A stretch of 20,000 nt of DNA, from the IMG/VR virus record IMGVR_UViG_3300018080_000169; one strand, given 5' to 3'. This DNA comes from an uncultured virus (IMG/VR IMGVR_UViG_3300018080_000169). Taxonomy: Duplodnaviria; Heunggongvirae; Uroviricota; Caudoviricetes. The notes under the pieces are model-generated. The model ran no database searches and was not told where the DNA came from. It was given only the letters and a program-made list of their open reading frames with translations. Shown piece by piece: positions 103 through 16,936 of the stretch. Position numbers and translations under genes: made by a program. Within the stretch, counting starts at the first letter, position 1, and every line of letters starts with the position of its first letter.

Positions 103-154
103 AATGTTTGTGTTTTTTATTATATAACGAATTTAATTTTTAAAGTAATGATAT

Positions 155-646
155 TTATTCTTTTATGAAATAGCCATAAACACATCTTGTCCCCCCACGT
201 GAACAATCGTAAGTATCATGTATAACTCCGTCTATCATAGCAGTTAGATGTTTAGATGTTCTTACAATTAATCTGCCATTTGGCAGTTCATCTGCCCTTA
301 AATGTACTTTACAACCCTGTCCTATAAACATTGTAGGTACCCATTTCCACCCTATACTCTTCAAATATTTTTCGTAAGTTACTCTAAAAACTCCATTCCT
401 GGAATTAGATGTTTTACGTTTTCTTTTTCCTGTTCTTTCTCTTTCTGCTAATAAATTTAAAGTATTATAAACTTCTTTATAATCTTTTCCTGTGGTTATT
501 GCTATTGAACGAGTTACACAATCCCTTACTTTTTCGGCTTTAAAATATTCACTTCTGCCACCGTCATTATATTGAAATTTTTGTGCAAAGGAATAATGCT
601 CTCCATTTTTATAGCCAATTTCTGACCAAATTATTTTTTCTTCCAT
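155..646 (-). CDS. Conserved phage protein, possible Cys-His-Asp (C39/papain-like) fold
   Basis: 163 aa with motifs YNDGGR, DCVTRSIA, KHLTAMIDG, HDT and CVYGYF; repeat upstream. Confidence 0.75.
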   Translation of the reverse strand: MEEKIIWSEIGYKNGEHYSFAQKFQYNDGGRSEYFKAEKVRDCVTRSIAITTGKDYKEVYNTLNLLAERERTGKRKRKTSNSRNGVFRVTYEKYLKSIGWKWVPTMFIGQGCKVHLRADELPNGRLIVRTSKHLTAMIDGVIHDTYDCSRGGTRCVYGYFIKE

Positions 647-696
647 TTGTTTTGTTTTTATTATATAACGAATTTAATTTTTAAAGTAATGAAATT

Positions 697-897
697 TTAA
701 CGTTGTCCAAAGCGTCCTTTATCTATCCAAATTATCAATTCATTTTCGCTTGGTCTTAACATAACTGAACATTTTTTTGATAAAAGATAATTAACTATCT
801 CATTCCTTTTTTTTGTGGAATATTCAAATTCCTCTAAATGTTCATATTTTATTCCTTCAATTTTGCTGTGCCAATATCCTATTTTTATTTTTTTCAT
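697..897 (-). CDS. Hypothetical protein
   Basis: 66-aa ORF exactly filling the space between repeats 908 and 661. Confidence 0.8.
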   Translation of the reverse strand: MKKIKIGYWHSKIEGIKYEHLEEFEYSTKKRNEIVNYLLSKKCSVMLRPSENELIIWIDKGRFGQR

Positions 898-989
898 TTG
901 TTTTTATTTATATAACGAATTTAATTTTAAAAGTAATGAAATTCTACTTTAACTACAAAAAAAATATATTTAAAGTAACAATTAAAATG

Positions 990-1016
990 AAAAAAGAGGA
1001 GGACTTTCACCTCCTC
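990..1016 (-). terminator. Intrinsic terminator
   Basis: Minus strand GAGGAGG-tgaaagt-CCTCCTC followed by a T-run. Confidence 0.7.
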
Positions 1017-1075
1017 CAAAAACAAACAAACAGGCAATTTGTCCCAGAACGGGACTGAAAAGTTCTTTTATATCT

Positions 1076-1513
1076 TTAATCTGAACAACGCTTTTCTGTT
1101 TTCAGCATATCAGCTTCATAATTTTGAAGTATTAACGAAATTTCATCTATTGTGTCTTCATCCAATTCTTCATACGCAACTGAAAATTCATCAACTTCTG
1201 TTTCGTGAACATACGTAACAACATCAACATCATTATTATTAAATCTTTCAATCAGGGAGAAATTGTCTTTTCCTATTGTAGCATAAACAGGAGAGTTTTC
1301 TGATTCCAGTTCACCCATAGAAATACTACCCCATTCTTCAATAATTCTTTTTATTTCTGAAATTTTTTGTTCCTTAATATCTACTTCATGCCCAATTTCA
1401 ACAACTTCTATCATTCCTTCATCATCAATATTGCCATTAATTAATGCTTCTAAAATGTCTTTTGTGGTAGGAGATTTTTCTCCAACATACTTAATTTTAA
1501 ATTCTTTTTTCAT
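1076..1513 (-). CDS. Acidic hypothetical protein
   Basis: 145 aa, Glu/Asp-rich; repeat 1530 upstream. Confidence 0.8.
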   Translation of the reverse strand: MKKEFKIKYVGEKSPTTKDILEALINGNIDDEGMIEVVEIGHEVDIKEQKISEIKRIIEEWGSISMGELESENSPVYATIGKDNFSLIERFNNNDVDVVTYVHETEVDEFSVAYEELDEDTIDEISLILQNYEADMLKTEKRCSD

Positions 1514-1563
1514 AGCTTTTGTTTTTATTTATTATAACGAATTATTATTTTAAAGTAATGAAT

Positions 1564-2016
1564 TTATGCTCCGCAACTTTCTAAAATATCATCAACTTCT
1601 TCCTGGTCATTCGGGGAGAGTTTTTTGTAATAGCTTTGAAATTTATCTTTCAACGCTAAACATTCATCATCTTTACCCTCTCTTAAAAGTTCTTCAGCAT
1701 CTAAAAACATTTGTGCAACTTCATCAGCTTCCAAAACTATATTTACATCAGGGTAAATTTTTTTTACAGTATCAATTAAAACTTTTCTGTCCTTTTCATC
1801 AGGACTAAAAAGTTCTAAACGTCTGCCACCTGGGCCCCAAATGTCTATTGAAAGGTCTGCAAAGTGGTCAAAAAACATTCTTTTGTATTCTTTATAAAAA
1901 AATATAGCCGTAACATTTGAGCCAACTTGAATAACACATTTGTATTTGCCTAATTTAACTTCCCCAAAAACATCATTTTGGGTAACTTTTTCAATTAATC
2001 TTTTTAAATATCCCAT
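1564..2016 (-). CDS. Hypothetical protein
   Basis: 150-aa ORF between repeats 2032 and 1530. Confidence 0.8.
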   Translation of the reverse strand: MGYLKRLIEKVTQNDVFGEVKLGKYKCVIQVGSNVTAIFFYKEYKRMFFDHFADLSIDIWGPGGRRLELFSPDEKDRKVLIDTVKKIYPDVNIVLEADEVAQMFLDAEELLREGKDDECLALKDKFQSYYKKLSPNDQEEVDDILESCGA

Positions 2017-2084
2017 GATTTTTGTTTTTGTTTATATAACGAATTTAATTTTTAAAGTAATGAAATTTATGTCAATAATGTAAA

Positions 2085-2213
2085 TTATTTTAATTTCTCC
2101 ACCAACGATAATATTGCGTTAACAGTTTTTTCATTTTCAAATAACTCTTTATCTACTTCTATTACATAATCAATATTAAATGTCTTTTTTTTCTTCCCTG
2201 TCTTCAGATTCAT
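2085..2213 (-). CDS. Small hypothetical protein (42 aa)
   Basis: Hand-translated MNLKTGKKKKTFNIDYVIEVDKELFENEKTVNAILSLVEKLK; fills the gap before repeat 2032. Confidence 0.45.
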   Translation of the reverse strand: MNLKTGKKKKTFNIDYVIEVDKELFENEKTVNAILSLVEKLK

Positions 2214-2229
2214 GTCCAATATTAATAAG

Positions 2230-2601
2230 TTATGCACCATGTTTTACCATGCACACATAAACACTATACTTTGACCATGAACAACAAAAAACTGTCCATC
2301 CCGAAAATTCAGGAAATTCAATTTCTGTTAAATCTTCTGTAGTTTTATTCTTCCTGATATTTGTTGTGTTTTTATTTGCTTCCAATACGATACAAGGTAT
2401 ATCATTTTTATTACTACCAGTAGCCGAAATTTTACCCCATTTATTTTTTGTGTCAATACAAAAAGCTATTACATTATCTGATTTTTGATAAGTAATACAA
2501 TTGTTTACAGAAATAGCACCTTGATAAGTAACACGGTGCATAACAACAGGTATATTTAATACCTGTGTTTCAGTGTTATTCAAGTTTTCTACTTTTTTCA
2601 T
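2230..2601 (-). CDS. Hypothetical protein carrying an internal inverted-repeat-bounded segment
   Basis: 123-aa ORF; 15-bp inverted repeats at 2229-2243 and 2530-2544. Confidence 0.75.
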   Translation of the reverse strand: MKKVENLNNTETQVLNIPVVMHRVTYQGAISVNNCITYQKSDNVIAFCIDTKNKWGKISATGSNKNDIPCIVLEANKNTTNIRKNKTTEDLTEIEFPEFSGWTVFCCSWSKYSVYVCMVKHGA

Positions 2602-2747
2602 CTTTATTTGTATTTTGATTGTTTATACTATTTAATCAGGCACTAAACATATCTGTTGGATTGTGTTTGTAAGTTTTATGATTTCAATTTTTTTCATTGT
2701 ATCTATATAATGAATAAAAATTATGAAATAATGAATTAATATGTAAC

Positions 2748-2951
2748 TTATAGCTCATCAAGCACATTAATAATTTCCTGTGAATAATCATCAATTAATT
2801 CATCAGTCATTAATTCATACCTACTATAAGGTAATTCTTTTTCAAATTTTTCAACTGCATTTTTAAATTTTTTTACATCATCAGTTGAGAAAGTTCTACT
2901 CATTGTATCAGATGAATGTTTGTCTATTGCTGTAATTGTTAGTAAATCCAT
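2748..2951 (-). CDS. Hypothetical protein
   Basis: 67 aa, between repeats 2964 and 2703. Confidence 0.8.
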   Translation of the reverse strand: MDLLTITAIDKHSSDTMSRTFSTDDVKKFKNAVEKFEKELPYSRYELMTDELIDDYSQEIINVLDEL

Positions 2952-2999
2952 AGCTTTTTTTATTTATATACCGAATTAAAATTTTAAAGTAATAAAAAT

Positions 3000-3025
3000 C
3001 CCCCCACTCAAATTAAGGGGGAGAG
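3000..3025 (-). terminator. CCCCCACTTAATTTAAGCGGGGG-family hairpin
   Basis: ccccccactcaaattaagggggagag between a stop codon and the next repeat. Confidence 0.6.
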
Positions 3026-3030
3026 TTCTT

Positions 3031-3237
3031 TTAATCTTCGTCTGGCAGTTCAGCAATTTCTTTTTCGCCTTCTTCGTGTTCTATTGCCCTGTCATTCCAG
3101 GTAATTATTTCATATTTTTTGCCTTCATATTCAAAAACTTCTGCATCGCCTGCATTTGAGTTTGTTTGACTTTCATCAATAGGATAATCATATAAAAATT
3201 CTCCATTTTCTAAAACGTCTTGAATGTTTGGTTTCAT
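3031..3237 (-). CDS. Acidic hypothetical protein (68 aa)
   Basis: Start moved to the ATG at 3237 (MKPNIQ...), just downstream of repeat 3251. Confidence 0.8.
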   Translation of the reverse strand: MKPNIQDVLENGEFLYDYPIDESQTNSNAGDAEVFEYEGKKYEIITWNDRAIEHEEGEKEIAELPDED

Positions 3238-3286
3238 AGTGTTTTTTTGTTTATATAACGAATAAAAATTTTGAAGTAATGAATTA

Positions 3287-3571
3287 TTACTCAAATTCAA
3301 AACTTATTTCAGTAACATACATATCAGCATCATCAAAACCTGGATTTATCATTTTAAGATAATAAATATCAAAATATCCGAATGTATCTTCTTTTTTTGA
3401 ATTAAACATGAAATTATAATCACAAGGTTTATTATCAAAATTTGTGCAATCTTCTCCTTTAATTTCTTCATTAAAAATTTTGCTCAACTCTTGATTTAAG
3501 GTTTTTGATGAAAATCTTTTGCCAACAAGTTCTTCTAATTTGGCTACTATTGTTTTTTGAATATCTGTCAT
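3287..3571 (-). CDS. Hypothetical protein
   Basis: 94 aa, between repeats 3583 and 3251. Confidence 0.8.
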   Translation of the reverse strand: MTDIQKTIVAKLEELVGKRFSSKTLNQELSKIFNEEIKGEDCTNFDNKPCDYNFMFNSKKEDTFGYFDIYYLKMINPGFDDADMYVTEISFEFE

Positions 3572-3616
3572 AATTCTTTTGTTTATATAACGAATTAAAA
3601 ATTTAAAGTAATGAAA

Positions 3617-3982
3617 TTAAACTCTGCCTCTTTTTTCAGCACAAGTATAACACATATCTTCATTTTCTATAAGCCCTGAAGTTTTGCCACATTTAACACA
3701 AAATCTGTCATTGTTAATATTATCAAACCAAATAGTCAGGGAGTCTTTTATTTCATCATCTTTGACAAAAATATCAACAATTACACCGAGTTCATCTTTA
3801 TCATTTTTTATATCAACAATATCGGTATCACTAACTTTTTCATTTAAAAAATCTTTGATAATATCAACAATTTCTATTGCCCCGTCTTCGCCAACTATAA
3901 GGTCAGCAACTTCTTTTTCATCTAGAAACAATGTATATGTTTCTTTTTCGTTGCCGTCATAAGTAATTACATTTTTTGCCAT
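3617..3982 (-). CDS. Acidic hypothetical protein with C-terminal CxxC...CxxC Zn finger
   Basis: 121 aa; CVKC and CYTC motifs near the C-terminus. Confidence 0.8.
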   Translation of the reverse strand: MAKNVITYDGNEKETYTLFLDEKEVADLIVGEDGAIEIVDIIKDFLNEKVSDTDIVDIKNDKDELGVIVDIFVKDDEIKDSLTIWFDNINNDRFCVKCGKTSGLIENEDMCYTCAEKRGRV

Positions 3983-4040
3983 AGTGTTTTTATTTATATA
4001 ACGAATAAAATTTTTAAAGTAATGAAATTGTTTATTAATT

Positions 4041-4283
4041 TTAGTAGCTTGTTTCAGCAGTTACTTCCCACCACCCACTATAACTAATGCCTTCTTCTCC
4101 TTTTTCAATATCTGTATCGTGCATAAAAACATTGTCGCACAATTCTCCAGATGTATAACCTTCAACCCTCATTTCATTTATTCTTTTTTCAGCACTTTCC
4201 TCAAGTGCCTCTTTGTGATGGTCTAAAATTTCTCCTTCTTCATCTCGCCACCACCTATAAGTAATTATGATTTTCTTTTCCAT
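4041..4283 (-). CDS. Hypothetical phage protein
   Basis: 80 aa with GYTSGEL and YSGWW; second gene of its module. Confidence 0.8.
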   Translation of the reverse strand: MEKKIIITYRWWRDEEGEILDHHKEALEESAEKRINEMRVEGYTSGELCDNVFMHDTDIEKGEEGISYSGWWEVTAETSY

Positions 4284-4297
4284 AATATTTATATTTT

Positions 4298-4627
4298 TTA
4301 GTTAATTAAAATCATTTCCATTTGGTCTTTAATAATATCAATAACCACATCAACCTCTTTAATACCGCTTATATGAAAATTCCATTTACCACTATATCTG
4401 TTTACACCTATAATTTTTTCATCTGCTAAAGAGGGATTATCAAATTTTGTAAAAACTGAATAACAATAATTGTTATCTTCATCAACTTTAATTTTTAAAT
4501 TTCCTGCAATAGTTCTTAAATTATAAGGATAACGATTATCAACTTTTTCTGCTCCGAGTTCAGTAATCATAGCAGTAACTTTTTTTACAAATTCTTTGCT
4601 TCTTTTTGCTGTTATTGTTTTTCTCAT
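4298..4627 (-). CDS. Hypothetical phage protein
   Basis: 109 aa with NRYSGKWNFH; repeat 4641 upstream. Confidence 0.8.
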   Translation of the reverse strand: MRKTITAKRSKEFVKKVTAMITELGAEKVDNRYPYNLRTIAGNLKIKVDEDNNYCYSVFTKFDNPSLADEKIIGVNRYSGKWNFHISGIKEVDVVIDIIKDQMEMILIN

Positions 4628-4675
4628 ATCGTTTTTTTGTTTATATAACGAATTTATTTTTTAAAGTAATGAAGT

Positions 4676-5038
4676 TTATTTTTTAATTCCATGACTTTCA
4701 GGATAATTTTCAAATTCGCCCATATTGTCCCATTCATCTAATAGTGTTTCAGGATGTTGCCAATCACAAAATTCAAATAATACTTCAGCTAATATTTCAG
4801 GGATTCCATTTACTCCCAATTCCTCAAAATGTTCTTTAGCCAAATTTACAAAATCCTGATAAGTATAACCTACGCCCTCTGTATAAAATTCTGCGTCATC
4901 TAATTCAGGGATATAACATACTTCATTTGTTTTTTCGCAAAATGCTTCAAAGTTTTTGTAAATATATCCCTGTTGAAAAAATTCTTTTTCAATTTTGCCG
5001 TTTTCGTGGATTTTACCAACTGTATCTAAATATGCCAT
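4676..5038 (-). CDS. Hypothetical protein (CYIPE / DWQHP motifs)
   Basis: 120 aa, between repeats 5050 and 4641. Confidence 0.8.
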   Translation of the reverse strand: MAYLDTVGKIHENGKIEKEFFQQGYIYKNFEAFCEKTNEVCYIPELDDAEFYTEGVGYTYQDFVNLAKEHFEELGVNGIPEILAEVLFEFCDWQHPETLLDEWDNMGEFENYPESHGIKK

Positions 5039-5061
5039 AATGTTTTTATTTATATAACGAA

Positions 5062-5199
5062 TTATTCTTTTAAAGTAATGAGTTTATATAAGTTTAATTT
5101 TTTGCATTTGGTACAACGCCAACCCTCTTTTCCTAAAAACCTTACACTTAAAAGTGCTTCCGCTTTACAACACGGACTTATGTTTCGTTTTTTATCCAT
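5062..5199 (-). CDS. Zn-ribbon micro-protein (45 aa), paralog of 9817-9957
   Basis: MDKKRNISPCCKAEALLSVRFLGKEGWRCTKCKKLNLYKLITLKE; start just downstream of repeat 5204. Confidence 0.75.
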   Translation of the reverse strand: MDKKRNISPCCKAEALLSVRFLGKEGWRCTKCKKLNLYKLITLKE

Positions 5200-5236
5200 T
5201 ATATAATATAACGAATTAAAAGGGAGAAGTAATGAA

Positions 5237-5605
5237 TTATCCAAAAACAACTTCGCCCATAACTGCCAACTGAAACCAAATATCTGCATCGTTTGCATCA
5301 TCTTCTTCTTTCAAAATATTGGCAAATATATACTGATAATCTTTTAATAAAATTTCTTCAGCTTTTTTAATGCTTTCAAGGTTTATTTCGCCCAATTTTT
5401 CATTTTCATTTTCAATATCAAATATCTCAATAGTTTTACCTTTTTGAATAGCTGTAAAAAATGCTTCACTTAAACAGGGTTTTTCTTCTGTTTTATGTTC
5501 AGATATAAGTTTAGTATTTTTTTCATCTATCAAATACCAATAATTTGAACCGCCCTCTAAAGCAGTTATAATTAAATTTTCTCGTGCTTTATCATTTAAT
5601 TTCAT
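5237..5605 (-). CDS. Conserved phage hypothetical protein (ALEGGSNYW ... DAxxAD..Q...GE motifs)
   Basis: 122 aa, between repeats 5621 and 5204. Confidence 0.85.
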   Translation of the reverse strand: MKLNDKARENLIITALEGGSNYWYLIDEKNTKLISEHKTEEKPCLSEAFFTAIQKGKTIEIFDIENENEKLGEINLESIKKAEEILLKDYQYIFANILKEEDDANDADIWFQLAVMGEVVFG

Positions 5606-5651
5606 AGTGGTTGTTTTTATTTATATAACGAATATTATTTTTAAAGTAATG

Positions 5652-5682
5652 AAAAAAAGGATACAAAAAATTGTATCCTTTT
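5652..5682 (-). terminator. Intrinsic terminator
   Basis: aaaaggatacaa-aaaa-ttgtatcctttt is a perfect 12-bp inverted repeat abutting repeat 5621. Confidence 0.7.
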
Positions 5683-5701
5683 CAAACCAGGCTCCCCTTT
5701 A

Positions 5702-5911
5702 TTACAGGGGAGAATTGAACTTAAACAAGCGAAATAGAAACAGGACTATATTGGTCAAGATAGTATCAACTACTAATATTTTTCTGTATTTTATTTTATA
5801 CATTCTTACTACCCTTCGTATTGCTTTTTTTATTGCCACTTCGTAAGCAATAAAAACCAGGACTAAAGTTGTTACAATCATTGGTACGATAGAATCTATT
5901 ATATAAAACAT
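5702..5911 (-). CDS. Small membrane protein
   Basis: 69 aa; two hydrophobic segments separated by a basic loop. Confidence 0.6.
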   Translation of the reverse strand: MFYIIDSIVPMIVTTLVLVFIAYEVAIKKAIRRVVRMYKIKYRKILVVDTILTNIVLFLFRLFKFNSPL

Positions 5912-5935
5912 ATTTATTTTTCTCCTATTTTAAAA

Positions 5936-6058
5936 TTAATTTTTTACTTTTCTTTTGTGGGACAGGCCCATTAAGCGTTCAGTATTTTGATTATGCCTGA
6001 ATTTTCTTACGGCTTTAATCATTTCTTTGTCTTCTTTAGTGTGCTTTTTTCTTCTCAT
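5936..6058 (-). CDS. Small basic protein (40 aa)
   Basis: Hand-translated MRRKKHTKEDKEMIKAVRKFRHNQNTERLMGLSHKRKVKN; starts just after the previous stop codon. Confidence 0.55.
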   Translation of the reverse strand: MRRKKHTKEDKEMIKAVRKFRHNQNTERLMGLSHKRKVKN

Positions 6059-6063
6059 GACTT

Positions 6064-6327
6064 TTAATAAATTATTATTTTTAATCCCATATTATCAGTA
6101 CGTATATTCATTAATGCTTTTCCAACTTTATTGGCTAATTCTATTTCATCATCAGTTAAATACTCCAGAAAATCACCAATTCCTGTTAGAAACTCATCAA
6201 AACTTTCAACTACAATACCTGCTGTTGTATCTCCAAACATCCCTCGTCCTGAATAATCTTTTCTTAATTCAACATCTATTGACATTGATAGAGCTTCTTC
6301 AAAAGCTTGTGCATATTCCAATTTCAT
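6064..6327 (-). CDS. Conserved phage hypothetical protein (YSGRGMFG motif)
   Basis: 87 aa; TAATG overlap with the upstream ORF. Confidence 0.8.
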   Translation of the reverse strand: MKLEYAQAFEEALSMSIDVELRKDYSGRGMFGDTTAGIVVESFDEFLTGIGDFLEYLTDDEIELANKVGKALMNIRTDNMGLKIIIY

Positions 6328-6461
6328 TATACTTTTCCTCTACGTTTTTTAGTTTTTGTACTTTTTGCTAAAGCAATTTGTTCTGTAAAATCGGCAGGAT
6401 TTTTACCTTCTGCTTTTAATTTTCTTGTAAGTTTTCTGCCTGGAAAATTTTTTCTTTTCAT
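6327..6461 (-). CDS. Small basic protein (44 aa)
   Basis: MKRKNFPGRKLTRKLKAEGKNPADFTEQIALAKSTKTKKRRGKV; downstream of repeat 6497 and translationally coupled to the next gene. Confidence 0.65.
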   Translation of the reverse strand: MKRKNFPGRKLTRKLKAEGKNPADFTEQIALAKSTKTKKRRGKV

Positions 6462-6531
6462 AGTTTGTTTAAATTTTAAGTTTAACAATTATTTATTATT
6501 ATAACGAATTATTTTTTTAAAGTAATGAAAT

Positions 6532-7347: not shown

Positions 7348-7350
7348 ATT

Positions 7351-10485: not shown

Positions 10486-10532
10486 AAGTGTTTGTTTTGT
10501 TTATATAACGAATATAAATTATGAAGTAATGA

Positions 10533-10757
10533 TTATATTATTGCTAAAAATTCTCTATCTGTAAAATAATCCAGAATAGGTGTTGTATTTATTACTTCTA
10601 GTATTATGGCAATGTCTATTTTATTAGAATTTGCTTTTTTAGTTTCCTTAGCAACTTGTTTTGCAGTTTCTAAAGTTCCTATATGGTCTTGCAACCAATA
10701 TCCATTAATTTTATTTTGCCTTTTTGATGATATGTTTATTAAAGAAAATTTGCTCAT
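10533..10757 (-). CDS. Hypothetical protein (74 aa)
   Basis: Start moved to MSKFSLIN downstream of repeat 10768. Confidence 0.75.
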   Translation of the reverse strand: MSKFSLINISSKRQNKINGYWLQDHIGTLETAKQVAKETKKANSNKIDIAIILEVINTTPILDYFTDREFLAII

Positions 10758-10827
10758 TTGTTTTTGTTTATATAACGAATAAAAACTGAGAAGTAATGAA
10801 GTTTCTAAAAGGATAACGAAAAACTGT

Positions 10828-11277
10828 CTATTCTTTAGCAAAGGGAAGTGAATAGTATTTGACAAGTCTATCAAAATCTTTATTAATAAACATATCATAA
10901 ACAGTTGTATCATCAAAATCTTTTAATAATCCTGAATTGTACCCCACTCTTTTATATCCGTTTGAAGTTAATACATCATAGACATATTTGAACGCTATTG
11001 TAGTAAATCTTTTTATTCTAAATTTTAGTTTATCATCATCCGTTGTTGGTACATCAATAACCCAACTTAAAAGAATATCATCCCAAGCATCATACCCATT
11101 ATCTCTACCACTAAAATAAGCATCATCTGGTATATCATTATCTTTCATAAATTTAGGTATATCTAAAGGATTAACATCAATAATACTAACGCTTTTAATA
11201 ATCTTCTTTGTAATTGGAGTTTGCCTATCAAGTTTGCCTATTGCGTCATTTAATGCCTTTATAATAAGAGTTTTCAT
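10828..11277 (-). CDS. Hypothetical protein
   Basis: 149 aa, flanked by two identical repeat copies. Confidence 0.85.
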   Translation of the reverse strand: MKTLIIKALNDAIGKLDRQTPITKKIIKSVSIIDVNPLDIPKFMKDNDIPDDAYFSGRDNGYDAWDDILLSWVIDVPTTDDDKLKFRIKRFTTIAFKYVYDVLTSNGYKRVGYNSGLLKDFDDTTVYDMFINKDFDRLVKYYSLPFAKE

Positions 11278-11326
11278 CTTTGCTTGTTTATTTATATAAC
11301 GAATAAAAACTGAGAAGTAATGAAAA

Positions 11327-11575
11327 TTAATTTAAAATTTTTTCTCTATCTGAATCTAAACCAGTATAAAATACTTGTATTTCGCTATCAATTTCATCAA
11401 TAGTATGTTCATAAACAACTATTTGTCCATCATTATTTTTAACGTCTGTTATTGCATCTTCATCTTTTTTTACCATTTCAATAGCTTTTTCTAAATTACT
11501 GGCAATACCAATTACTCTATGAGAAGCCCAAGTTTGCAAAATATCTGTATGGTATATTAAAAATACTTTTTTCAT
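11327..11575 (-). CDS. Hypothetical protein
   Basis: 82 aa, between repeats 11592 and 11292. Confidence 0.8.
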   Translation of the reverse strand: MKKVFLIYHTDILQTWASHRVIGIASNLEKAIEMVKKDEDAITDVKNNDGQIVVYEHTIDEIDSEIQVFYTGLDSDREKILN

Positions 11576-11630
11576 ATTGTTTAATTTTTATTTATATAAC
11601 GAATAAAAATTTTGAAGTAATGAAAAAATA

Positions 11631-11657
11631 GCCCCCACTTAATTTAAGCGGGGGGAG
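11631..11657 (-). terminator. CCCCCACTTAATTTAAGCGGGGG-family hairpin
   Basis: Same family, between a stop codon and repeat 11592. Confidence 0.7.
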
Positions 11658-11665
11658 AATTTTAT

Positions 11666-12010
11666 TTAGCCAACTTCAACAATTTCTAAAATATGAGAGG
11701 GAGTAGTAGCACACTTTCTTATTAAAGTTTTGTTAAAAGCAAATATTTCCATTATGCCATAATATTTAGTTTTAACAAAATACCTTTTCAAATGTTCTTT
11801 GAAACTTATTTTATATCCCCTTAACTTATAAACTCCGTGTTTATAAGTATCAGGATTCCATAACTCATTAAAAGTTATTTCAATAAGTTTTCTTTCTTCT
11901 TTTGAAAGTTCTTTAAAAGATTTTTCTTTTAATACTTCGTGCAAATGATATGCGTTACTGCCCTTGATTTCTTCTATTGGAGCAGGTTTTTCTACAAATG
12001 GGTAAATCAT
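11666..12010 (-). CDS. Hypothetical protein (114 aa)
   Basis: Start moved to the ATG at 12010 (MIYPFVEK), after the A-rich leader. Confidence 0.8.
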   Translation of the reverse strand: MIYPFVEKPAPIEEIKGSNAYHLHEVLKEKSFKELSKEERKLIEITFNELWNPDTYKHGVYKLRGYKISFKEHLKRYFVKTKYYGIMEIFAFNKTLIRKCATTPSHILEIVEVG

Positions 12011-12072
12011 AATTGTTTGTTTTTTAGTTAGCAATTTTATTTATATAACGAATTTATTTTTTAAAGTAATGA

Positions 12073-12100
12073 AAAAGGGAGAGTTAAAATTTAACTCCCC
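12073..12100 (-). terminator. Intrinsic terminator
   Basis: gggagagttaaa/tttaactccccc inverted repeat followed by a T-run on the minus strand. Confidence 0.65.
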
Positions 12101-12136
12101 CAAAAACAAATTGCAAACCTCAACAAAAATATATCT

Positions 12137-12361
12137 TTAATTTGATATTGCAATAGCATATAAAAACATGTTTCTGCTTATCATTAAAAACTCTTTATAA
12201 TCTAATCTTTTTTGTATAGGTATCATTTTTAATGGTCGCCCTGTTTCTTCATGAGTATGATATAATATACTTTTCTGTGAGTCATAAGTCAAAATTATTC
12301 CTGTGCCTATTAAATGATAGTGAAATAAATTTATGCCCGATTTTGCAGATATTATACTCAT
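12137..12361 (-). CDS. Hypothetical protein
   Basis: 74 aa; second gene of its module. Confidence 0.65.
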   Translation of the reverse strand: MSIISAKSGINLFHYHLIGTGIILTYDSQKSILYHTHEETGRPLKMIPIQKRLDYKEFLMISRNMFLYAIAISN

Positions 12362-12367
12362 TTTATT

Positions 12368-12643
12368 TTATTGTGCCTGAAATTTAGCAACCAATTTTTT
12401 AAGTGAATTATCAAATTCTTTTTTGTTTTCATCAACAGTTTTAACTTTAAATAAAGGAATAGCCACAATAAATTTTGCCATTTCTTTAACAATTTCAATT
12501 TCCCATGATTCACCAGTCTTTATTAAATCTGACTTTTTAGGAAAAACAACTTTTCCTTTTTTGTTTCTGCCAAGTAATTTTTGATTTTCGCCTGTATAAA
12601 ACTGTATCACTTCAGTTTTAATTGCGTTAGGGATAGTTTTCAT
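12368..12643 (-). CDS. Hypothetical protein, possibly TRAM/OB-like
   Basis: Start at MKTIPNA; GKVVFP...GESWEIEIVKEMAKFIVA loosely resembles TRAM-domain strands (weak). Confidence 0.65.
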   Translation of the reverse strand: MKTIPNAIKTEVIQFYTGENQKLLGRNKKGKVVFPKKSDLIKTGESWEIEIVKEMAKFIVAIPLFKVKTVDENKKEFDNSLKKLVAKFQAQ

Positions 12644-12671
12644 TTTTGTTTGTTTTTGGTTAGACAATTTA

Positions 12672-12932
12672 TTAATATAACGAATAAAAATTATGAAGTA
12701 ATGAAATATCTGAAATATTTAAGTTTTTAAGTTTATTTAAAATATATTCCCAACTTTTGTGTGCTTCAGGAAAATATATTATGTTATCTTTATCAGGGTG
12801 CATATAATCATATTTAATCTCTTTTCTTATTCTATGCCACCTAACAGCATCCCGAGCCTCTTTTAAAGCAAGTTTGAAATTAGTTATTTCAACCAATTCG
12901 CCCCTTATATTTTTAATAAATCTTGGTTTCAT
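12672..12932 (-). CDS. Hypothetical protein reading through the next repeat
   Basis: 86 aa; the C-terminal SLLHNFYSLY is encoded by repeat 12673. Confidence 0.7.
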   Translation of the reverse strand: MKPRFIKNIRGELVEITNFKLALKEARDAVRWHRIRKEIKYDYMHPDKDNIIYFPEAHKSWEYILNKLKNLNISDISLLHNFYSLY

Positions 12933-12966
12933 TTATTTTATTTATTTAAAAGTTTCCTAACTTAAT

Positions 12967-13155
12967 TTAAACAGGGGAGATTATTGCTATAAAGTATATA
13001 TTAGCTTTTTCTTTAGTGTCAAAAGTTTTTAAAATATTTTCATCTTGACTTACAGCATATTTACCATTTTTTAATAAATCTAAATAATAAGACTTAAATC
13101 CTATTTCTGCAGTTTTTAGTGTTTTTTGTATAATTTCCGTTGTATTTTTTTGCAT
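12967..13155 (-). CDS. Hypothetical protein
   Basis: 62 aa; repeat 13174 upstream. Confidence 0.7.
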   Translation of the reverse strand: MQKNTTEIIQKTLKTAEIGFKSYYLDLLKNGKYAVSQDENILKTFDTKEKANIYFIAIISPV

Positions 13156-13209
13156 GTTTTTATAAGTTTTTGTTTACATAACGAATTAAAAGGTAGAAGT
13201 AATGAAAAA

Positions 13210-13235
13210 TCCCCCACTTAAATTAAGCAGGGAGA
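13210..13235 (-). terminator. CCCCCACTTAA-family hairpin
   Basis: tcccccacttaaattaagcagggaga. Confidence 0.6.
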
Positions 13236-13238
13236 TTT

Positions 13239-13577
13239 TTACTTTTTAGCTTTTTTGCTTTTAAAAATCTTTGTCAAAATATTTTTCTTTGCCTGTGCTT
13301 TTTCTTTAGCTTCAACTTCAGCCCTACGTTTTTCTTCTCTTGCTTTATTCAGGGAAAGTCTTTTTTCTGACTTCTTAGAGTTTAATTCAGTTCTGATACT
13401 AGCCAATTCAACTAAATCTTCTTTTCCAATTACAAGTTTTTTCTCTGCTTTTAATTCAGCCAATTCTCTTTTGTCTGTTACAAGTTGCCCCGTATCTTTG
13501 TTGAATTTTTTGCCTTTGGAGATTATCTCCGATTGCTTACCTTTTAAGGTTCTGATGTCGTTGTCAATAGTTTTCAT
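13239..13577 (-). CDS. Lys-rich coiled-coil hypothetical protein
   Basis: 112 aa, K/E-rich with a helical pattern. Confidence 0.8.
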   Translation of the reverse strand: MKTIDNDIRTLKGKQSEIISKGKKFNKDTGQLVTDKRELAELKAEKKLVIGKEDLVELASIRTELNSKKSEKRLSLNKAREEKRRAEVEAKEKAQAKKNILTKIFKSKKAKK

Positions 13578-13665
13578 TTTTGTTTGTTTTTAGTTTAACA
13601 TTTATTTATATAACGAATACATTTTTTAAAGTAATGGAAATTTAGTTTAATGAATAATAAAAAAA

Positions 13666-13692
13666 TCCCCCACTTAATTTAAGCAGGGAGAG
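13666..13692 (-). terminator. CCCCCACTTAA-family hairpin
   Basis: tcccccacttaatttaagcagggagag, followed by a T-run on the minus strand. Confidence 0.6.
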
Positions 13693-13696
13693 ATTT

Positions 13697-13891
13697 TTAA
13701 GCAACTTTTAAAATACCTTCTCCAGGAATTTCTTTAGGTCTGTCCACTACAACACCATTTAGCTCATTTTCAACAATGCTTTTTGCCTCAAGTCTAAAAG
13801 GTGAAGTTAAAATCTTTTCATCATTTTCAACTTGTATAACTTCAAATTTAAACAGACTTTTTTCATCAATATAAAATTTTTTAGTTTCCAT
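13697..13891 (-). CDS. Hypothetical protein
   Basis: 64 aa; repeat 13927 upstream. Confidence 0.75.
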   Translation of the reverse strand: METKKFYIDEKSLFKFEVIQVENDEKILTSPFRLEAKSIVENELNGVVVDRPKEIPGEGILKVA

Positions 13892-13991
13892 TTTTTGTTT
13901 GTTTTTAGTTTGACAATTTGTTTTTCTTATATAACGAAATAAGATATTGAAGTAATGAAAAAACTAAATTTAAGAGGGGGAGAATTTTATT

Positions 13992-14570
13992 TTATACTTT
14001 TTCTAATAAAGCAGTAATTAATTCTTTTTCTTCAACATATTCAGCTATTCCATTTTTTTCAAAATCTGTACCATAAAACCCCCAACAACTATTTATAACG
14101 TCCTCATTTTTATCAAGCACCTCAAAACCGTACACATCACCACGTATATAAGTATCATATATATCAACTTCTGTAAGCAATATTTTTTCAGCTTTTTCAA
14201 TTTGCTTTTTGCTTACCCTTTTTGACATAAATTCTTTTCTTACTGCCTCTTTGGTAACAATAGCAAAACCCACTTGCCAACTGTCCCACCTACAACCAAA
14301 AGGGTTTGTAGATATTGTGATTCCGCTATGGTCATATAGGTAGAGGGGGAGAATAACTGCAACATCTTCATTTTTGATAATATCCTGCTCCATTTCATCC
14401 CAACCACTATAATCATCACTATTATAATTATGCTCATCCCCTAAATTATAACGATTATGAAAACATATCATTTTGCCTAAATTGTCCCAATTACGTGGAC
14501 TTTCAAAACTGTCGTCATAAAATATTTTCAGGGTTTTTTCGTTTACAGTAACTTTTTTTATAGCGTCCAT
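13992..14570 (-). CDS. Conserved phage/mobile-element hypothetical protein (LPLYLYDHSG / SCWGFYG motifs)
   Basis: 192 aa with SPRNWDNLG, LPLYLYDHSGITIST, GDVYGF and SCWGFYG. Confidence 0.85.
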   Translation of the reverse strand: MDAIKKVTVNEKTLKIFYDDSFESPRNWDNLGKMICFHNRYNLGDEHNYNSDDYSGWDEMEQDIIKNEDVAVILPLYLYDHSGITISTNPFGCRWDSWQVGFAIVTKEAVRKEFMSKRVSKKQIEKAEKILLTEVDIYDTYIRGDVYGFEVLDKNEDVINSCWGFYGTDFEKNGIAEYVEEKELITALLEKV

Positions 14571-14635
14571 ATTGCTTTTTGTTTTTGGTTTAACATTTAT
14601 TTATATAACGAATACCAGTTTTAAAGTAATGAAAT

Positions 14636-14836
14636 TTAAACATCTTTTTCTTTTACTGCCCCAACTTTTTTTAATACTTCATTCACTTGTTTGCTATGCT
14701 TTCCTACTTTCATTCTAAATAAGTCATTTGACTTTTGTTGATAAAATACCAAGCCCGACAAATAAGGGTAAACTAGTTTAAACTGTTTTCTGTTCAGTTT
14801 ATAAATTATCATTTCACTTTTGTAAACTTTTAACAT
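14636..14836 (-). CDS. Hypothetical protein
   Basis: 66 aa, between repeats 14852 and 14601. Confidence 0.7.
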   Translation of the reverse strand: MLKVYKSEMIIYKLNRKQFKLVYPYLSGLVFYQQKSNDLFRMKVGKHSKQVNEVLKKVGAVKEKDV

Positions 14837-14897
14837 CTTGTTTGTTTTTATTATTATAACGAATTAAAATTTTAAAGTAACAGGGAGAATTTAAAAT

Positions 14898-14929
14898 AAA
14901 AAAGGGAGATGTTAATTTAACATCCCCCT
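14898..14929 (-). terminator. Intrinsic terminator after ardC
   Basis: agggagatgttaa/ttaacatccccct inverted repeat with a T-run. Confidence 0.7.
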
Positions 14930-14936
14930 GATTTTT

Positions 14937-15848
14937 TTATACTGCTTGTTCTTTTTCTATTTCTTTATGTATTTTTACTGAAGCTGTTTCCTCATCTTCC
15001 AACTTTCCTAAAATATAATCAACTGCTTTTTGTGCCTGTGTACTTGCTTTGAAAATTAATTTACTATCATTTTGTAATGCTCTTATCCAGCTTTGTAAGT
15101 ATGCAACACTATTTTTTTCAGTATCTTCATTATTAATTCCGCCTATTGCAGATAAAAAACTTGCTCCAATTTCAGCGATTAACTCTTCAAAACTATAATC
15201 ATGGTTTTCAAAAAATGTACCTGACATGACCGTAGCCCTGTTTAATCTGTCCGTGTGTCCCGTACTATGTACTAATTCATGAGCCAATGTACTATAATAT
15301 TTTTCAGTGCTGTCAAAAGCTTTTTTAACAGGCAATTTAATATAATCTAATGTAGGATTGTAATAAGCCCTGTCGCCCCCCTCTTTTTGCACTGGTTTAT
15401 TTGGCATATTATTAAAAATTTCCTCAAGTGTTTCAACTGTACCAATATTTTCGTTACCTTCAATTTCCTTAAATTCTACTCCCTCAATTTGTTCAGCATT
15501 GAAAATATTGTAATATCTTAATAAAGGGATGCGTTTCGTTTCATTTTCTCCAGTAACTTTATTTTCTCTCTCTATATTTAAAATCTTCCAATATACCACG
15601 GTTGTTGCTTTTTCGCCCTTTATAACTTTACCCCCAAGCTTATTAGCTTGTTTCATAGTAAGCCAAAAAGGACTTTTAAAATCTGCAAATGAAGTTATAA
15701 AAGCATTAATTCCCCTGTAACCCTTTTTTGTTACATAATTCATAGGTACACCAATAGAGGACCAAGGACGTTTCCATGAAAATTTGCCCTCTTGCATACG
15801 TTTGATGATTTGGTCTGTTACTTTTTTATAAACATCTGAATTTTTCAT
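14937..15848 (-). CDS. ardC: ArdC-family anti-restriction protein (ssDNA-binding N-domain plus zincin-like metallopeptidase domain)
   Basis: 303 aa with WKRPW, YRGIN, WLTMKQANKLGGKVIKGEK, HELVHSTGH (HExxH), RLNR and YSFEELIAEIGA. Confidence 0.92.
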   Translation of the reverse strand: MKNSDVYKKVTDQIIKRMQEGKFSWKRPWSSIGVPMNYVTKKGYRGINAFITSFADFKSPFWLTMKQANKLGGKVIKGEKATTVVYWKILNIERENKVTGENETKRIPLLRYYNIFNAEQIEGVEFKEIEGNENIGTVETLEEIFNNMPNKPVQKEGGDRAYYNPTLDYIKLPVKKAFDSTEKYYSTLAHELVHSTGHTDRLNRATVMSGTFFENHDYSFEELIAEIGASFLSAIGGINNEDTEKNSVAYLQSWIRALQNDSKLIFKASTQAQKAVDYILGKLEDEETASVKIHKEIEKEQAV

Positions 15849-15922
15849 TTTGCTTGTTTTTTAGTTTGACAATTTGTTATTTGAATATATAACGAAACGA
15901 AATTTTAAAGTAATGAAATAAA

Positions 15923-15953
15923 AAAAACTCCCTGAATTTTTTAGGGAGTTTTT
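15923..15953. terminator. Bidirectional-looking hairpin terminator
   Basis: aaaaactccctgaa/tttagggagttttt. Confidence 0.7.
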
Positions 15954-16203
15954 AAAAATAATAATGAATCAAATAATTAAACAAAAAAAGAAAACAAATA
16001 ATGAAACATATAACGAAACGAAACTTTAAAGTAATGAAATAAAGGGAGATTTTTAAAATTAAATTTAACGTAATTTAAAGCTATTTAACGAATTGTCTAT
16101 TATTTTGGTAACTCTCCCCAAAGAGATAATAAAACAGTCAGAAATTAACTAAAATAAATTATTACAGGGTAAATTATAATAATATGCTAATATACAAAAA
16201 AAA

Positions 16204-16231
16204 TCCCCCCACTTAATTTAAGAGGGGGGAT
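16204..16231 (-). terminator. CCCCCACTTAA-family hairpin
   Basis: tccccccacttaatttaagaggggggat, followed by a T-run on the minus strand. Confidence 0.7.
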
Positions 16232-16252
16232 ATAAATTTTGATTTTTTTCTT

Positions 16253-16780
16253 TTAATTCTCAACAATAAAAGTTTCTTTGTTTAATGTTATTCTTGCAAT
16301 AGACAACATTTTGAAAGTCCTTATTATCACTTTATTCTCAAGCCCTGCCTGTTCGCCCTCTTTTTTATTAGTGTCAAGCCCTGTTATTAGCTCTTTTCGT
16401 ATCGGTTTGCCGTCTAATAAATAAGTAACCGAGCCAGGTTTTAAAAATATTACTTCAAGATAAAATTGCCCTTTGTGCTCAATTAATGGAGTACCCTTAA
16501 TTCTTTCGCCCCATTTTCTAGGTTTTAATTCAAAAATTGGAGTTTTGCCTTCAGATAATAGCCGTCTTTCAACCATTTTTTGATAAGCATTAACATTTTT
16601 ATTTTGAAATACCATAACATTGTTACCTGTTGATAATTTAGTAACTCTGCCCTGCATATCATTTTTTTGACCACCTTTTAATATTGGTATTGTAGCCGTA
16701 TCAATACCTATAAAGGTACTACCATTAACTACACCAGATTTGAATTTTGCAATTAATTGTTCAATAGTGATTTTTTTCAT
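16253..16780 (-). CDS. Conserved phage hypothetical protein, first gene of the array
   Basis: 175 aa with GGQKNDMQGRVTK, YQKMVERRL and PRKWGERIKGTPLIEHKG. Confidence 0.85.
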   Translation of the reverse strand: MKKITIEQLIAKFKSGVVNGSTFIGIDTATIPILKGGQKNDMQGRVTKLSTGNNVMVFQNKNVNAYQKMVERRLLSEGKTPIFELKPRKWGERIKGTPLIEHKGQFYLEVIFLKPGSVTYLLDGKPIRKELITGLDTNKKEGEQAGLENKVIIRTFKMLSIARITLNKETFIVEN

Positions 16781-16936
16781 TTTGTTTGTTTTTTTAGTTA
16801 AACAATTTGTTATTTGAATATATAACGAAACGAAAATTTAAAGTAATGAAATTTAAAAATTTATATCTTAAATTTTTACGTAAAAATTTTATAAAAGTTT
16901 CAGCATAACGAAAAAATTTTTTAAAACAATAAAAAA

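Follow-up and report, generated by a model that had tools for sequence, protein, structure and literature searches.

A candidate array of PeSL-like promoter cassettes with an ECF-like promoter motif in an uncultivated phage lineage

A stretch of 20,000 nucleotides from an uncultured virus (IMG/VR record IMGVR_UViG_3300018080_000169), called the window in the following, is largely occupied by an array of small accessory genes (1..16964, minus strand, open at the left edge), most of which have their own copy of a bipartite promoter-like motif, TTACTT-N11-TTCGTTAT. The overall best explanation, to which we assign a probability of roughly 0.6, is a cassette array of early genes that is built like the promoter(early)-stem-loop elements (PeSLs) of T4-type phages and that would be driven by a phage-specific promoter. 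Judged by its resemblance to these elements, the array represents PeSL-like promoter cassettes in a new phage lineage, with a non-canonical promoter that is similar to those of extracytoplasmic function (ECF) sigma factors.

Number, orientation and consensus of the motif

With at most one mismatch the motif was found 39 times in the window, while 200 dinucleotide-preserving shuffles of the window contained 0.02 copies on average and one copy at most. The minus strand carries 38 of them, the outermost at 124-148 and 16822-16846, and the plus strand carries a single one (16940-16964). There are two additional minus-strand copies with two mismatches (2707-2731 and 16905-16929); a plus-strand match with two mismatches (9666-9690) looked like a chance match and was not counted as a copy. 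The distance between the two boxes is 11 nt in every copy. An earlier reading of the bare sequence (the sequence-only reading) had reported 39 co-oriented copies between 120 and 16849, which are the 38 minus-strand copies and the degenerate copy at 2707. The fixed spacing that it had described was found, but its description of the element on the plus strand has to be reversed: to the left of 16900, the minus strand carries all long open reading frames (ORFs), which means that the motif is to be read on this strand. In a window with a G+C content of 27.9%, the 17 kb of the array have a density of one copy per 0.42 kb, in a single unbroken and co-oriented run.

The consensus of 42 window sites including the flanks is attTcATTACTT.aaaa.tt..aTTCGTTATATaaa.AAAa. 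The extended element has a length of about 40 nt (ttTCATTACTT-N11-TTCGTTATAtaaatAAAaa), with the conserved flanks TTTCA upstream and TATATAAA downstream. The invariant letters are AC and CGT at a distance of 15 nt (AC-N15-CGT), and in the 42 window sites and 48 sites of related contigs (see below) the C of TTAC and the CG of TTCG carry the most information. The spacer is variable and has a bias towards A and T, and nothing more. The consensus of the 48 sites of the relatives is the same as that of the window, letter for letter in both boxes, in spite of the fact that the shared proteins are merely 52-78% identical. This difference in divergence indicates that the boxes are under strong selection.

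The position of the motif is tightly linked to gene starts. In 37 of the 39 minus-strand copies an ORF of at least 30 amino acids (aa) begins 8-41 nt, mostly 14-20 nt, past TTCGTTAT, and the motif is present at most 60 nt upstream of 34 of the 44 non-overlapping minus-strand ORFs. The other ten are genes two to four of their modules, the longest of which contains four ORFs (6501 down to 5702), so that the proposed division into modules of one to four genes could be confirmed. The sole plus-strand copy faces the only plus-strand genes of the window. It forms an inverted pair with the degenerate minus-strand copy at 16905; from this pair the array extends leftward, and two ORFs of 205 and 626 aa are read rightward. 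At the other end, the array indeed continues past the edge of the window, because the promoter copy with the core TTACTT-N11-TTCGTTAT at 124..148 (minus) heads an ORF that runs off base 1 and has a homolog of 79 aa in the related contig L027.

Taken together, the sense orientation, the distance to the start codons, the inverted copy in front of the divergent genes and the conservation of the boxes agree with the earlier proposal, made from sequence, that the repeat is an expression signal. The motif is very likely a promoter for a bacterial-type RNA polymerase. Transcription would start a few bases after TTCGTTAT, and the leaders would then have lengths of 0-12 nt for most genes and, in eight cases, of 30-40 nt. 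They are rich in A, and Shine-Dalgarno-like words precede only 4 of 44 ORFs. A distance of 32-41 nt to the start is found for eight copies, of which the right third of the array contains seven, and these eight long leaders share a second box, TTGTyaAACyAAAAACAAACAAA, directly before the ATG (promoters 16822, 15889, 14605, 13931, 13610, 12677, 12045 and 6501, all minus strand). A similar A-rich box precedes a promoterless sigma factor gene in the related contig L011 (735-757), and therefore the second box is probably a Shine-Dalgarno-free translation initiation region; it may also be an operator.

A GC-rich hairpin followed by a T-run was found at most 70 nt upstream of 10 of 40 motif copies. 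It ends 6-42 nt before TTACTT, and the T-run often merges into the TTTTCA that opens the motif. In a consensus scan of the window, 21 terminator-like sites were detected on both strands, in comparison to 6.8 expected sites. Seven hairpins belong to one family, CCCCCACTTAATTTAAG-GGGGG, which also recurs in the related contig L007; a hairpin-plus-promoter unit of about 80 nt recurs in this contig with 86% identity over 81 nt. At the ten copies with a terminator directly upstream, transcription must restart. About a quarter of the copies would thus be fused to an upstream intrinsic terminator and represent composite terminator/promoter borders. The predicted promoter-gene-terminator architecture is therefore valid for a minority of the modules, but not for the rest.

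Database scans were performed with the exact form TTACTT-N11-TTCGTTATATAA (18 letters). Six matches were retrieved from IMG/VR, each of them single. The species-representative prokaryote genomes contained 23 single matches, and none of them had more than one exact copy. The metagenome collection yielded 62 loci. A literature search with the 12-letter core of the motif retrieved one paper, which is unrelated.

Relatives and turnover of the cassettes

Fourteen short metagenome contigs (numbered with L) with three sample prefixes were selected from the 62 loci as relatives of the window. Nine have at least two exact copies of the motif, three more have at least two copies with at most two mismatches, and two single-copy contigs were kept on the basis of their sample prefix and their extended consensus. 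Together they contain 49 motif copies, all of which are co-oriented with small ORFs. The other 48 loci, with a single match, were dropped; a scan that allowed three mismatches revealed only AT-rich noise in the nine cases that were viewed by eye. In tblastn searches of the GenBank phage collection (INPHARED), the 626-aa protein, the ArdC-like protein and a 192-aa protein of the window had no match or scattered distant ones below 60% identity. In IMG/VR, neither the 626-aa protein nor the sigma factor described below had a relative, whether a single sequence or an alignment served as the query.

The ORFs of the window were clustered together with those of the 14 contigs into gene families, of which F1 to F10 are used here to compare the gene order. 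In the direction of transcription, the order in the window is F4 > F5 >. > F6 > five others > F1 >. > F7 > ~ten > F8 > F2 >. > F9 F10. The order in L007 is F7. >. > F6 > F1 > F8 F2 > (unrelated gene) > F9 F10, in L056 it is F4 > (65-aa gene not in window) > F5, and in L048 it is F1 > two unrelated genes > F2. Thus, the order of the anchors F4-F5-F6-F1-F8/F2-F9F10 is common to the window and its relatives, while the number of genes between the anchors differs (0, 5 or about 13). A gene replacement is exemplified by the 98-aa ORF 7351-7647 of the window, in place of which an unrelated 73-aa ORF is found in L007, and F7 has been transposed, as it is placed differently in L007. A homolog in the window is present for only 12 of the 60 ORFs of the relatives. 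Gain, loss and replacement of modules and one transposition, as they had been anticipated by the sequence-only reading, are therefore found among the relatives, with block ends at the repeat. A conserved gene order with indel breakpoints unrelated to the repeats had been named as a finding that would refute shuffling; by this test, shuffling was not refuted.

The ends of the homology blocks were located in the comparison with L007. For the five anchor-gene blocks, with two shorter repeat-driven alignments set aside, 7 of 10 ends are at most 15 nt away from a motif in both sequences. Two of the remaining ends are inside genes, in stretches where the similarity of the DNA declines, and the last one coincides with an ATG that has no promoter in the window. 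The spacers of adjacent promoters of the window are slightly more alike than those of random pairs (4.22 versus 4.79; 57 of 2000 permutations). In a DNA run that may be the source of the window, the contigs end at promoter repeats, and the joints have sides of 20-40 letters that lie inside the repeat; because of these short sides the joints are silent on circles or rearrangements.

The repeated borders of 40-80 nt would be sites of ordinary homologous recombination, which would delete, insert, duplicate and move cassettes that are already wired for expression, and a dedicated recombinase would be unnecessary for the exchange of cassettes. We lean slightly towards the view that the borders serve this kind of recombination.

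Candidate sigma factors

The promoters of the primary sigma factor of Bacteroidota consist of TAnnTTTG at -7 and TTTG near -33. None of the 25 TAnnTTTG boxes of the window is inside a motif copy, and it had been stated correctly that the motif does not match this promoter type; it is also unlike the sigma-70 consensus. In a sigma-70 scan of the window, the box pair of the motif was not among the 60 sites that were listed; the scan requires a T as the final letter of the -10 box, and the -10-like part of the motif lacks this T. ECF promoters are characterized by a -35 box with AAC, a -10 box with CGT, a spacer of 14-17 nt and a close adherence to the consensus, and most ECF sigma factors drive their own genes (PMC5758882).

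Two of the related contigs encode a sigma factor, and both proteins contain only the sigma-70 regions 2 and 4. In L011 the sigma gene (758-1372, 204 aa) comes second after the motif copy at 513, and in L035 the copy at 732 is followed by the sigma gene (777-1661, 294 aa) in first place. The L011 protein and its homolog P0012, which are 59% identical, score above the curated threshold for TIGR02937, the model of the ECF superfamily (NCBIfam), and the nearest NCBIfam models are of the SigW type. For the L035 protein the protein database contained no relative besides itself. P0012 is encoded on a contig of 72,469 bp, which is equal to the length of the contig of the window, and from this equality alone it is concluded that the phage of the window very probably carries the P0012 gene outside the window. 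All named matches among the best 120 of the phage sigma factor belong to Bacteroidota, with about 40% identity; this fact and the missing Shine-Dalgarno sequences indicate that the host is probably a member of the Bacteroidota. Cellular homologs of the sigma factor were found in 26 of 101 sampled genomes of one phylum. A literature search for ECF sigma factors in Bacteroidetes phages revealed nothing relevant.

In L011, a 153-aa ORF without a family match (1376-1837, plus strand) begins 4 nt after the stop codon of the ECF-type sigma gene. Genes for anti-sigma factors are usually located directly after the gene of an ECF sigma factor.

According to the proposed mechanism, the motif would be read by a holoenzyme with an ECF-type sigma factor. 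ECF-type sigma factors behind their own promoter would generate a self-amplifying loop, the start of which would require a host sigma factor with some basal activity. That the reader is the phage's own ECF-type sigma factor, started in this way by the host, is a tentative proposal, the chance of which we rate as close to even, but below it. The most far-reaching version, a 'regulon on cassettes' in which a phage ECF-type sigma factor is made from and reads the promoter that borders at least 40 cassettes, is doubtful.

Observations against the proposed mechanism and alternative explanations

Several observations weigh against the proposed combination of a phage-specific promoter and recombining borders. 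Breakpoints at the repeat are inseparable from breakpoints at gene boundaries, because the repeat occupies nearly every intergenic gap. The junction before ORF 12137-12361 is a breakpoint that has no promoter in the window. The short contigs are derived from metagenomes and could be chimeric across the 35-nt repeat, which would affect the one transposition. Spacers are not more alike within contigs than between them (4.69 versus 4.73; 776 of 2000 permutations), and this lack of clustering of spacer variants by contig indicates that there is no strong concerted evolution. As for the polymerase, the -35 box of the motif is TTAC and not the ECF-type AAC, while CGT is invariant and the spacer is 15 nt. 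No similar motif was present upstream of 27 loci of cellular homologs of the sigma factor, and the placement of the sigma gene on the window's own contig depends solely on the equal length of 72,469 bp. The sequence had no match in the RNA runs that were searched. Furthermore, an early array needs a holoenzyme that is already present at injection. In phage 7-11, the phage sigma factor reads eight late promoters, while two early promoters are dependent on sigma-70 (PMC8948821), and by analogy this logic would imply that an early array, including its anti-restriction and sigma genes, is read by the host.

The last two points lead to the first rival explanation, an array of early promoters that is read by the host's own sigma factor, either an atypical primary one or a constitutively active alternative one, while the ECF-type sigma factors of the phage would serve only middle or late genes elsewhere. 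We regard this as possible, but rather unlikely. It is in accord with the early-type gene content, i.e., the ArdC-like anti-restriction protein and the kinase-like lead, and with the sigma genes being themselves behind the motif, so that some holoenzyme must pre-exist. Precedents are the division of labor in phage 7-11, with the phage sigma factor for late and sigma-70 for early promoters (PMC8948821), and the PeSL promoters of T4-type phages, which are sigma-70-like (PMC2839356). However, the motif fits neither TTGACA-N17-TATAAT nor TTTG/TAnnTTTG, and none of the species-representative genomes has more than one copy, a result that was obtained with the exact 18-letter pattern, which misses a looser consensus. 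In addition, the best named relatives of the sigma factor are all from Bacteroidota, and the primary promoter type of this group differs from the motif. Another reader of the motif could be a phage-encoded RNA polymerase, of the single-subunit type of T7 or N4 or packaged into the virion, with its gene outside the window. A long, near-invariant and private promoter in dozens of copies is indeed reminiscent of T7, the motif is not present in multiple copies in host genomes, and a genome of about 72 kb resembles N4-like phages. The sizes reported in PMC3715699 are 72.5-74.9 kb. Nevertheless, this explanation appears improbable: the motif consists of two boxes around an unconserved 11-nt spacer and spans about 40 nt in all, the terminators with GC-hairpin and T-run suit a bacterial enzyme, the lineage invests in sigma factors, which use the host core enzyme, and neither the window nor any of the 14 related contigs revealed an RNA polymerase gene. 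Promoters of the T7 type are one continuous block of about 23 nt.

Two further rivals deny the motif a role as promoter or as a mere substrate of homologous recombination. The motif could be another cis element, namely a signal by which long transcripts are processed or translated, or an operator to which a global regulator binds. It ends 8-20 nt before most starts and thus would lie partly in or next to the translation initiation region, and a box similar to the second one of the eight long leaders also precedes the sigma gene of L011 that has no promoter of its own. A pair of boxes with constant spacing and free spacer sequence is, however, the footprint of a DNA-binding sigma factor and not an RNA structure, transcription must restart at the ten copies that have a terminator directly upstream, the inverted copy serves the divergent unit, and no other repeated promoter-like element is present upstream of these genes, so that we consider this alternative very improbable. 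Still lower is the probability of an integron-like capture platform, in which the repeat would be the site of a dedicated site-specific recombinase, although the alternation of genes and sites, the different cassettes between conserved anchors and an 'empty' site at 16010-16034 could be explained in this way. Integron cassettes are promoterless and have attC on their 3' side. In the array, a promoter is on the 5' side of every cassette, and no attC-like internal inverted repeat was recognized by eye in the sequence logo, a dedicated search for inverted repeats not having been made. An integrase or recombinase family was present in none of 41 window proteins and none of 47 proteins of the relatives. 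Homologous recombination between repeats of 40-80 nt would suffice, as for the PeSLs (PMC2839356). The capture platform that the sequence-only reading had favored was thus not retained, and of the dedicated sigma factor, RNA polymerase or recombinase that it had inferred, ECF-type sigma factors are present in the lineage, outside the window, but neither of the other two was found in the window or the related contigs. The remainder of the odds falls to a reader of the motif other than those discussed here.

Comparison with known systems

PeSLs are composites of a sigma-70-like early promoter and a stem-loop terminator with about 50 copies per genome, e.g., 52 in phi1 and 51 in RB49, and they are concentrated before ORFans in hyperplastic regions (PMC2839356). 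Recombination between PeSLs explains indels and replacements and yields mini-circles (PMC2839356; PMC4122927). The array shares with them the dozens of copies per genome (at least 41 here), the intergenic location directly before small ORFans of a plastic early region, the junction of the promoter with a stem-loop terminator (here at only 10 of 40 copies), and the principle that the signals for expression travel with every cassette. In both cases the elements delimit the indels and replacements that distinguish relatives, which is here confounded with gene boundaries and possibly with chimeric contigs. In contrast to PeSLs, the promoter of the array, AC-N15-CGT, is not sigma-70-like, only about a quarter of the copies have a stem-loop, and the array genes lack a Shine-Dalgarno sequence. 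The array is also denser, with one copy per 0.42 kb in one co-oriented run, and sigma genes are present inside the array of relatives. Lastly, the contig measures 72 kb, and T4-type genes were not detected among those of the window.

Several features are shared with ECF promoters and autoregulated ECF operons (PMC5758882), i.e., the AC and CGT boxes, the 15-nt spacer, which is within the range of 14-17 nt, the tight consensus, and a sigma gene behind its presumed own promoter. The differences are the -35 box, TTAC instead of AAC, and the flanks, which stretch the element to about 40 nt. Moreover, at least 40 copies in 17 kb contrast with a small regulon, and recognition by a sigma factor is predicted here. 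Phage 7-11, a phiEco32-like phage, encodes gp47, which forms a holoenzyme with the host core enzyme and has a private promoter, GTAAtg-N16-aCTA (PMC8948821). It is of similar size and also encodes a sigma-family protein, but its sigma factor reads eight late promoters before structural genes (PMC8948821), whereas the motif of the array precedes early-type accessory genes and sigma genes. A sequence relationship between phage 7-11 and the window was not found with tblastn and three window proteins.

The host-takeover module of Bacillus phage SPO1 and the early gene sets of T4 and T7 consist of small early genes in short operons with near-identical strong promoters and often terminators. These early promoters are consensus promoters of the host sigma-A or sigma-70, and the sites of the T7 RNA polymerase belong to later classes. 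In comparison, the promoters of the array are more numerous, more uniform and of another type. Like an integron, the array has short unrelated genes that alternate with a repeated site, and the cassette content varies between relatives; unlike an integron, it has no integrase and no attC structure that could be found, the site is 5' of the genes and promoter-like, and the cassettes carry promoters. The early promoters of the crAss-like phage phi14:2 were considered as a match and rejected, because the early transcripts share no upstream motif according to the preprint 10.1101/2020.03.07.982082.

Promoter copies and modules along the array

All copies and ORFs in this section are on the minus strand unless stated otherwise and are described from left to right. 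The copy at 665..689 is 18 nt before the ATG of a 163-aa ORF (155-646; phrog_3754). It is followed by the copies at 912..936 before a 66-aa ORF (697-897), at 1534..1558 before a 145-aa ORF (1076-1513), after which a terminator-like hairpin with T-run is located (995..1017), and at 2036..2060 before a 150-aa ORF (1564-2016). No ORF of at least 30 aa starts within 80 nt of the degenerate copy at 2707..2731 (two mismatches), and ORF 2230-2601 is about 100 nt downstream of it. The copy at 2968..2992, with one mismatch, has a terminator hairpin directly upstream (2999-3022) and precedes a 67-aa ORF (2748-2951). Single ORFs of 68 aa (3031-3237), 94 aa (3287-3571) and 121 aa (3617-3982) are headed by the copies at 3255..3279, 3587..3611 and 3998..4022, respectively, while the copy at 4645..4669 precedes a 109-aa ORF (4298-4627), which has a homolog in L016, and then ORF 4041-4283.

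The next two copies are interlocked with a short gene. The copy at 5208..5232 is only 8 nt before the ATG of a 45-aa ORF with CxxC pairs (5062-5199), and the 3' end of this ORF is overlapped by the -35 box of the copy at 5054..5078, which itself precedes a 120-aa ORF (4676-5038). A similar 46-aa ORF with CxxC pairs (9817-9957) is located behind the copy at 9976..10000. The two proteins are paralogs with 65% identity and two CxxC pairs each; both genes are flanked by promoters, and each gene shares its final codons with the -35 box of the promoter that follows. The pair is a duplicated cassette within the array. It is outside the set of 46 window ORFs, among which no paralogs with E<1e-3 were found, so that the description of the array genes as unrelated is correct for the 46 ORFs and not for this pair.

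Between these two genes, the copy at 5625..5649 precedes a 122-aa ORF (5237-5605; phrog_2355), and the copy at 6501..6525 heads the longest module (ORFs 6327-6461, 6064-6327, 5936-6058 and 5702-5911). The copy at 6853..6877 is located before a 101-aa ORF (6532-6837). Terminators are directly upstream of the following two copies, namely 7320-7344 at the copy 7288..7312, which serves ORFs 7082-7273 and 6882-7085, a pair that stays together in L007, and 7700-7740 at the copy 7667..7691, which serves the replaced 98-aa ORF 7351-7647. The copy at 8100..8124 precedes the 112-aa DUF2958 ORF (7741-8079) and overlaps the 3' end of the 172-aa ORF 8096-8614, which is headed by the copy at 8629..8653. The copies at 8882..8906, at 9273..9297 and at 9809..9833 precede a 67-aa ORF (8658-8861), a 122-aa ORF (8896-9264) at a distance of 8 nt to the ATG, and ORFs 9602-9790 and 9308-9601 (phrog_8162), respectively.

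To the right of the second CxxC gene, copies are present at 10293..10317 before a 97-aa ORF (9984-10277), at 10505..10529 before a 51-aa ORF (10330-10485), at 10772..10796, 14 nt before the ATG of a 74-aa ORF, and at 11296..11320 before a 149-aa ORF (10828-11277). The copy at 11596..11620, with a terminator upstream (11632-11654), heads an 82-aa ORF (11327-11575), the homolog of which is differently placed in L007. Long leaders are found at the copy 12045..12069 (114-aa ORF 11666-12010; terminator 12077-12101 upstream) and at the copy 12677..12701 (ORFs 12368-12643 and 12137-12361); the latter ORF is second in its module, and in L007 it is directly behind a promoter. The copy at 13178..13202 precedes ORFs 12967-13155 and 12672-12932 and has a terminator upstream (13211-13233). 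Three more copies with long leaders follow, 13610..13634 before a 112-aa ORF (13239-13577; terminator 13667-13689 upstream), 13931..13955 before a 64-aa ORF (13697-13891), and 14605..14629 before the 192-aa ORF 13992-14570 (phrog_6186), which has a homolog in L007. The copy at 14856..14880, with a terminator upstream (14903-14929), belongs to a 66-aa ORF (14636-14836).

At the right end of the array, the copy at 15889..15913 has a leader of 40 nt and a terminator upstream (15923-15953) and precedes the 303-aa ArdC-like ORF 14937-15848. The copy at 16010..16034 has no ORF of at least 30 aa and runs after about 55 nt into the same terminator, 15923-15953. Judged by its sequence, this unit is either an emptied cassette or the source of a transcript of about 80 nt; in L056 a 65-aa ORF is present at the place of the empty copy. 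The first full leftward copy (16822..16846) has a leader of 41 nt and precedes a 175-aa ORF (16253-16780) with a homolog in L056; a terminator hairpin of the CCCCCACTTAATTTAAG-GGGGG family is located just after this ORF (16205..16225). The copies 16822 and 15889 are 93% identical over 70 nt. The degenerate leftward copy (16905..16929, two mismatches) forms an inverted repeat with the rightward copy, and this only plus-strand copy (16940..16964) points across a non-coding stretch of 386 nt at the ORFs 17351-17968 and 18009-19889.

Gene content and the rightward unit

Above the Pfam cut-offs, only 2 of 41 window proteins could be assigned, the ArdC-like anti-restriction protein and the DUF2958 protein (7741-8079). 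The ArdC-like protein (14937-15848) matches ArdcN (1.9e-31) and MPTase-PolyVal (7.2e-35) as well as phrog_7245. Nine window proteins had matches in PHROGs, all of unknown function except for the anti-restriction family. Neither a Pfam family nor a PHROG match was found for 31 of the 41 proteins, with thresholds of E up to 0.01 for Pfam, none reaching a curated cut-off, and of E up to 0.001 for PHROGs. The neighbors of window proteins in the protein atlas are viral, and the first gene of the array (175 aa, 16253-16780) has weak atlas leads only. Because of this gene profile, i.e., an ArdC-like protein, DUF2958 and a remainder of mostly ORFans, the array is, as far as can be judged from sequence, the early, accessory or anti-defence ('host-takeover') region in the genome of a ~72-kb uncultivated phage. 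Scans of the window for Rfam families and tRNAs revealed nothing above threshold.

The rightward unit consists of a 205-aa ORF without a family match (17351..17968, plus strand) and the 626-aa ORF (18009..19889, plus strand), for which no sequence match was found in Pfam, PHROGs or PDB. The atlas leads from the 626-aa protein to phage (T7-type) protein kinases, weakly and for residues ~390-620. Its relatives have 385-410 aa and cover about 60% of it with 39-48% identity, and therefore the version of the window has an extra domain. Its database entry lists one contig, of 72,469 bp, from which the window is derived.

Between the divergent units, a non-coding region of 386 nt (16965..17350) has a higher G+C content. 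In it, TTAgGGGGTCTAAaTA occurs three times as a direct repeat (at 17004, 17059 and 17072), and AT-rich repeats of the type AAATTTTT come next. A structured RNA was considered and rejected, as the folding of the region is not unusual (z = -1.07). The region may be a replication origin or a regulator-binding region that is fed by promoter 16940-16964. At 17211-17218 (plus strand) it contains TAAATTTG, the sole intergenic TAnnTTTG of the 25 in the window (positions read manually), 140 nt before the ATG at 17351 and with TTTC, not TTTG, about 20 nt upstream. For the rightward genes, this box could act as a promoter of the host type (Bacteroidota).

Three of the related contigs have additional features next to their motif copies. 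In L035, tRNA genes for Glu-TTC and Met-CAT (340-412 and 572-652, minus strand) are on the opposite strand directly before the first promoter, and in L043 a tRNA gene for Met-CAT (129-201, minus strand) is on the opposite strand directly before the first promoter of the array. The array of L035 begins with the gene of the 294-aa sigma-like protein. L016 contains a RadC-like JAB-domain gene (870-1247, plus strand; Pfam 1.2e-26) behind a motif copy. RadC-like JAB genes are common in anti-defence and leading regions.

Implications

In PMC2839356 and PMC4122927, PeSL borders are described in T4-type phages only and with host sigma-70 promoters. The same cassette architecture is now seen in an unrelated, uncultivated lineage, where it is denser, more uniform and equipped with an ECF-like promoter. 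If the proposed mechanism is true, a border would be a promoter, a terminator and a recombination site at once, and a gene that is recombined between two borders would automatically join a circuit that is unseen by the primary sigma factor of the host. If the sigma factor reads the motif, the pool of accessory and anti-defence genes would be placed on a private, self-amplifying sigma circuit, and the lineage would offer a natural orthogonal pair of promoter and sigma factor, probably for Bacteroidota. Even if the motif is read by the host, the 41 near-identical promoters with their natural spacer variation represent a data set on border-driven turnover of cassettes.

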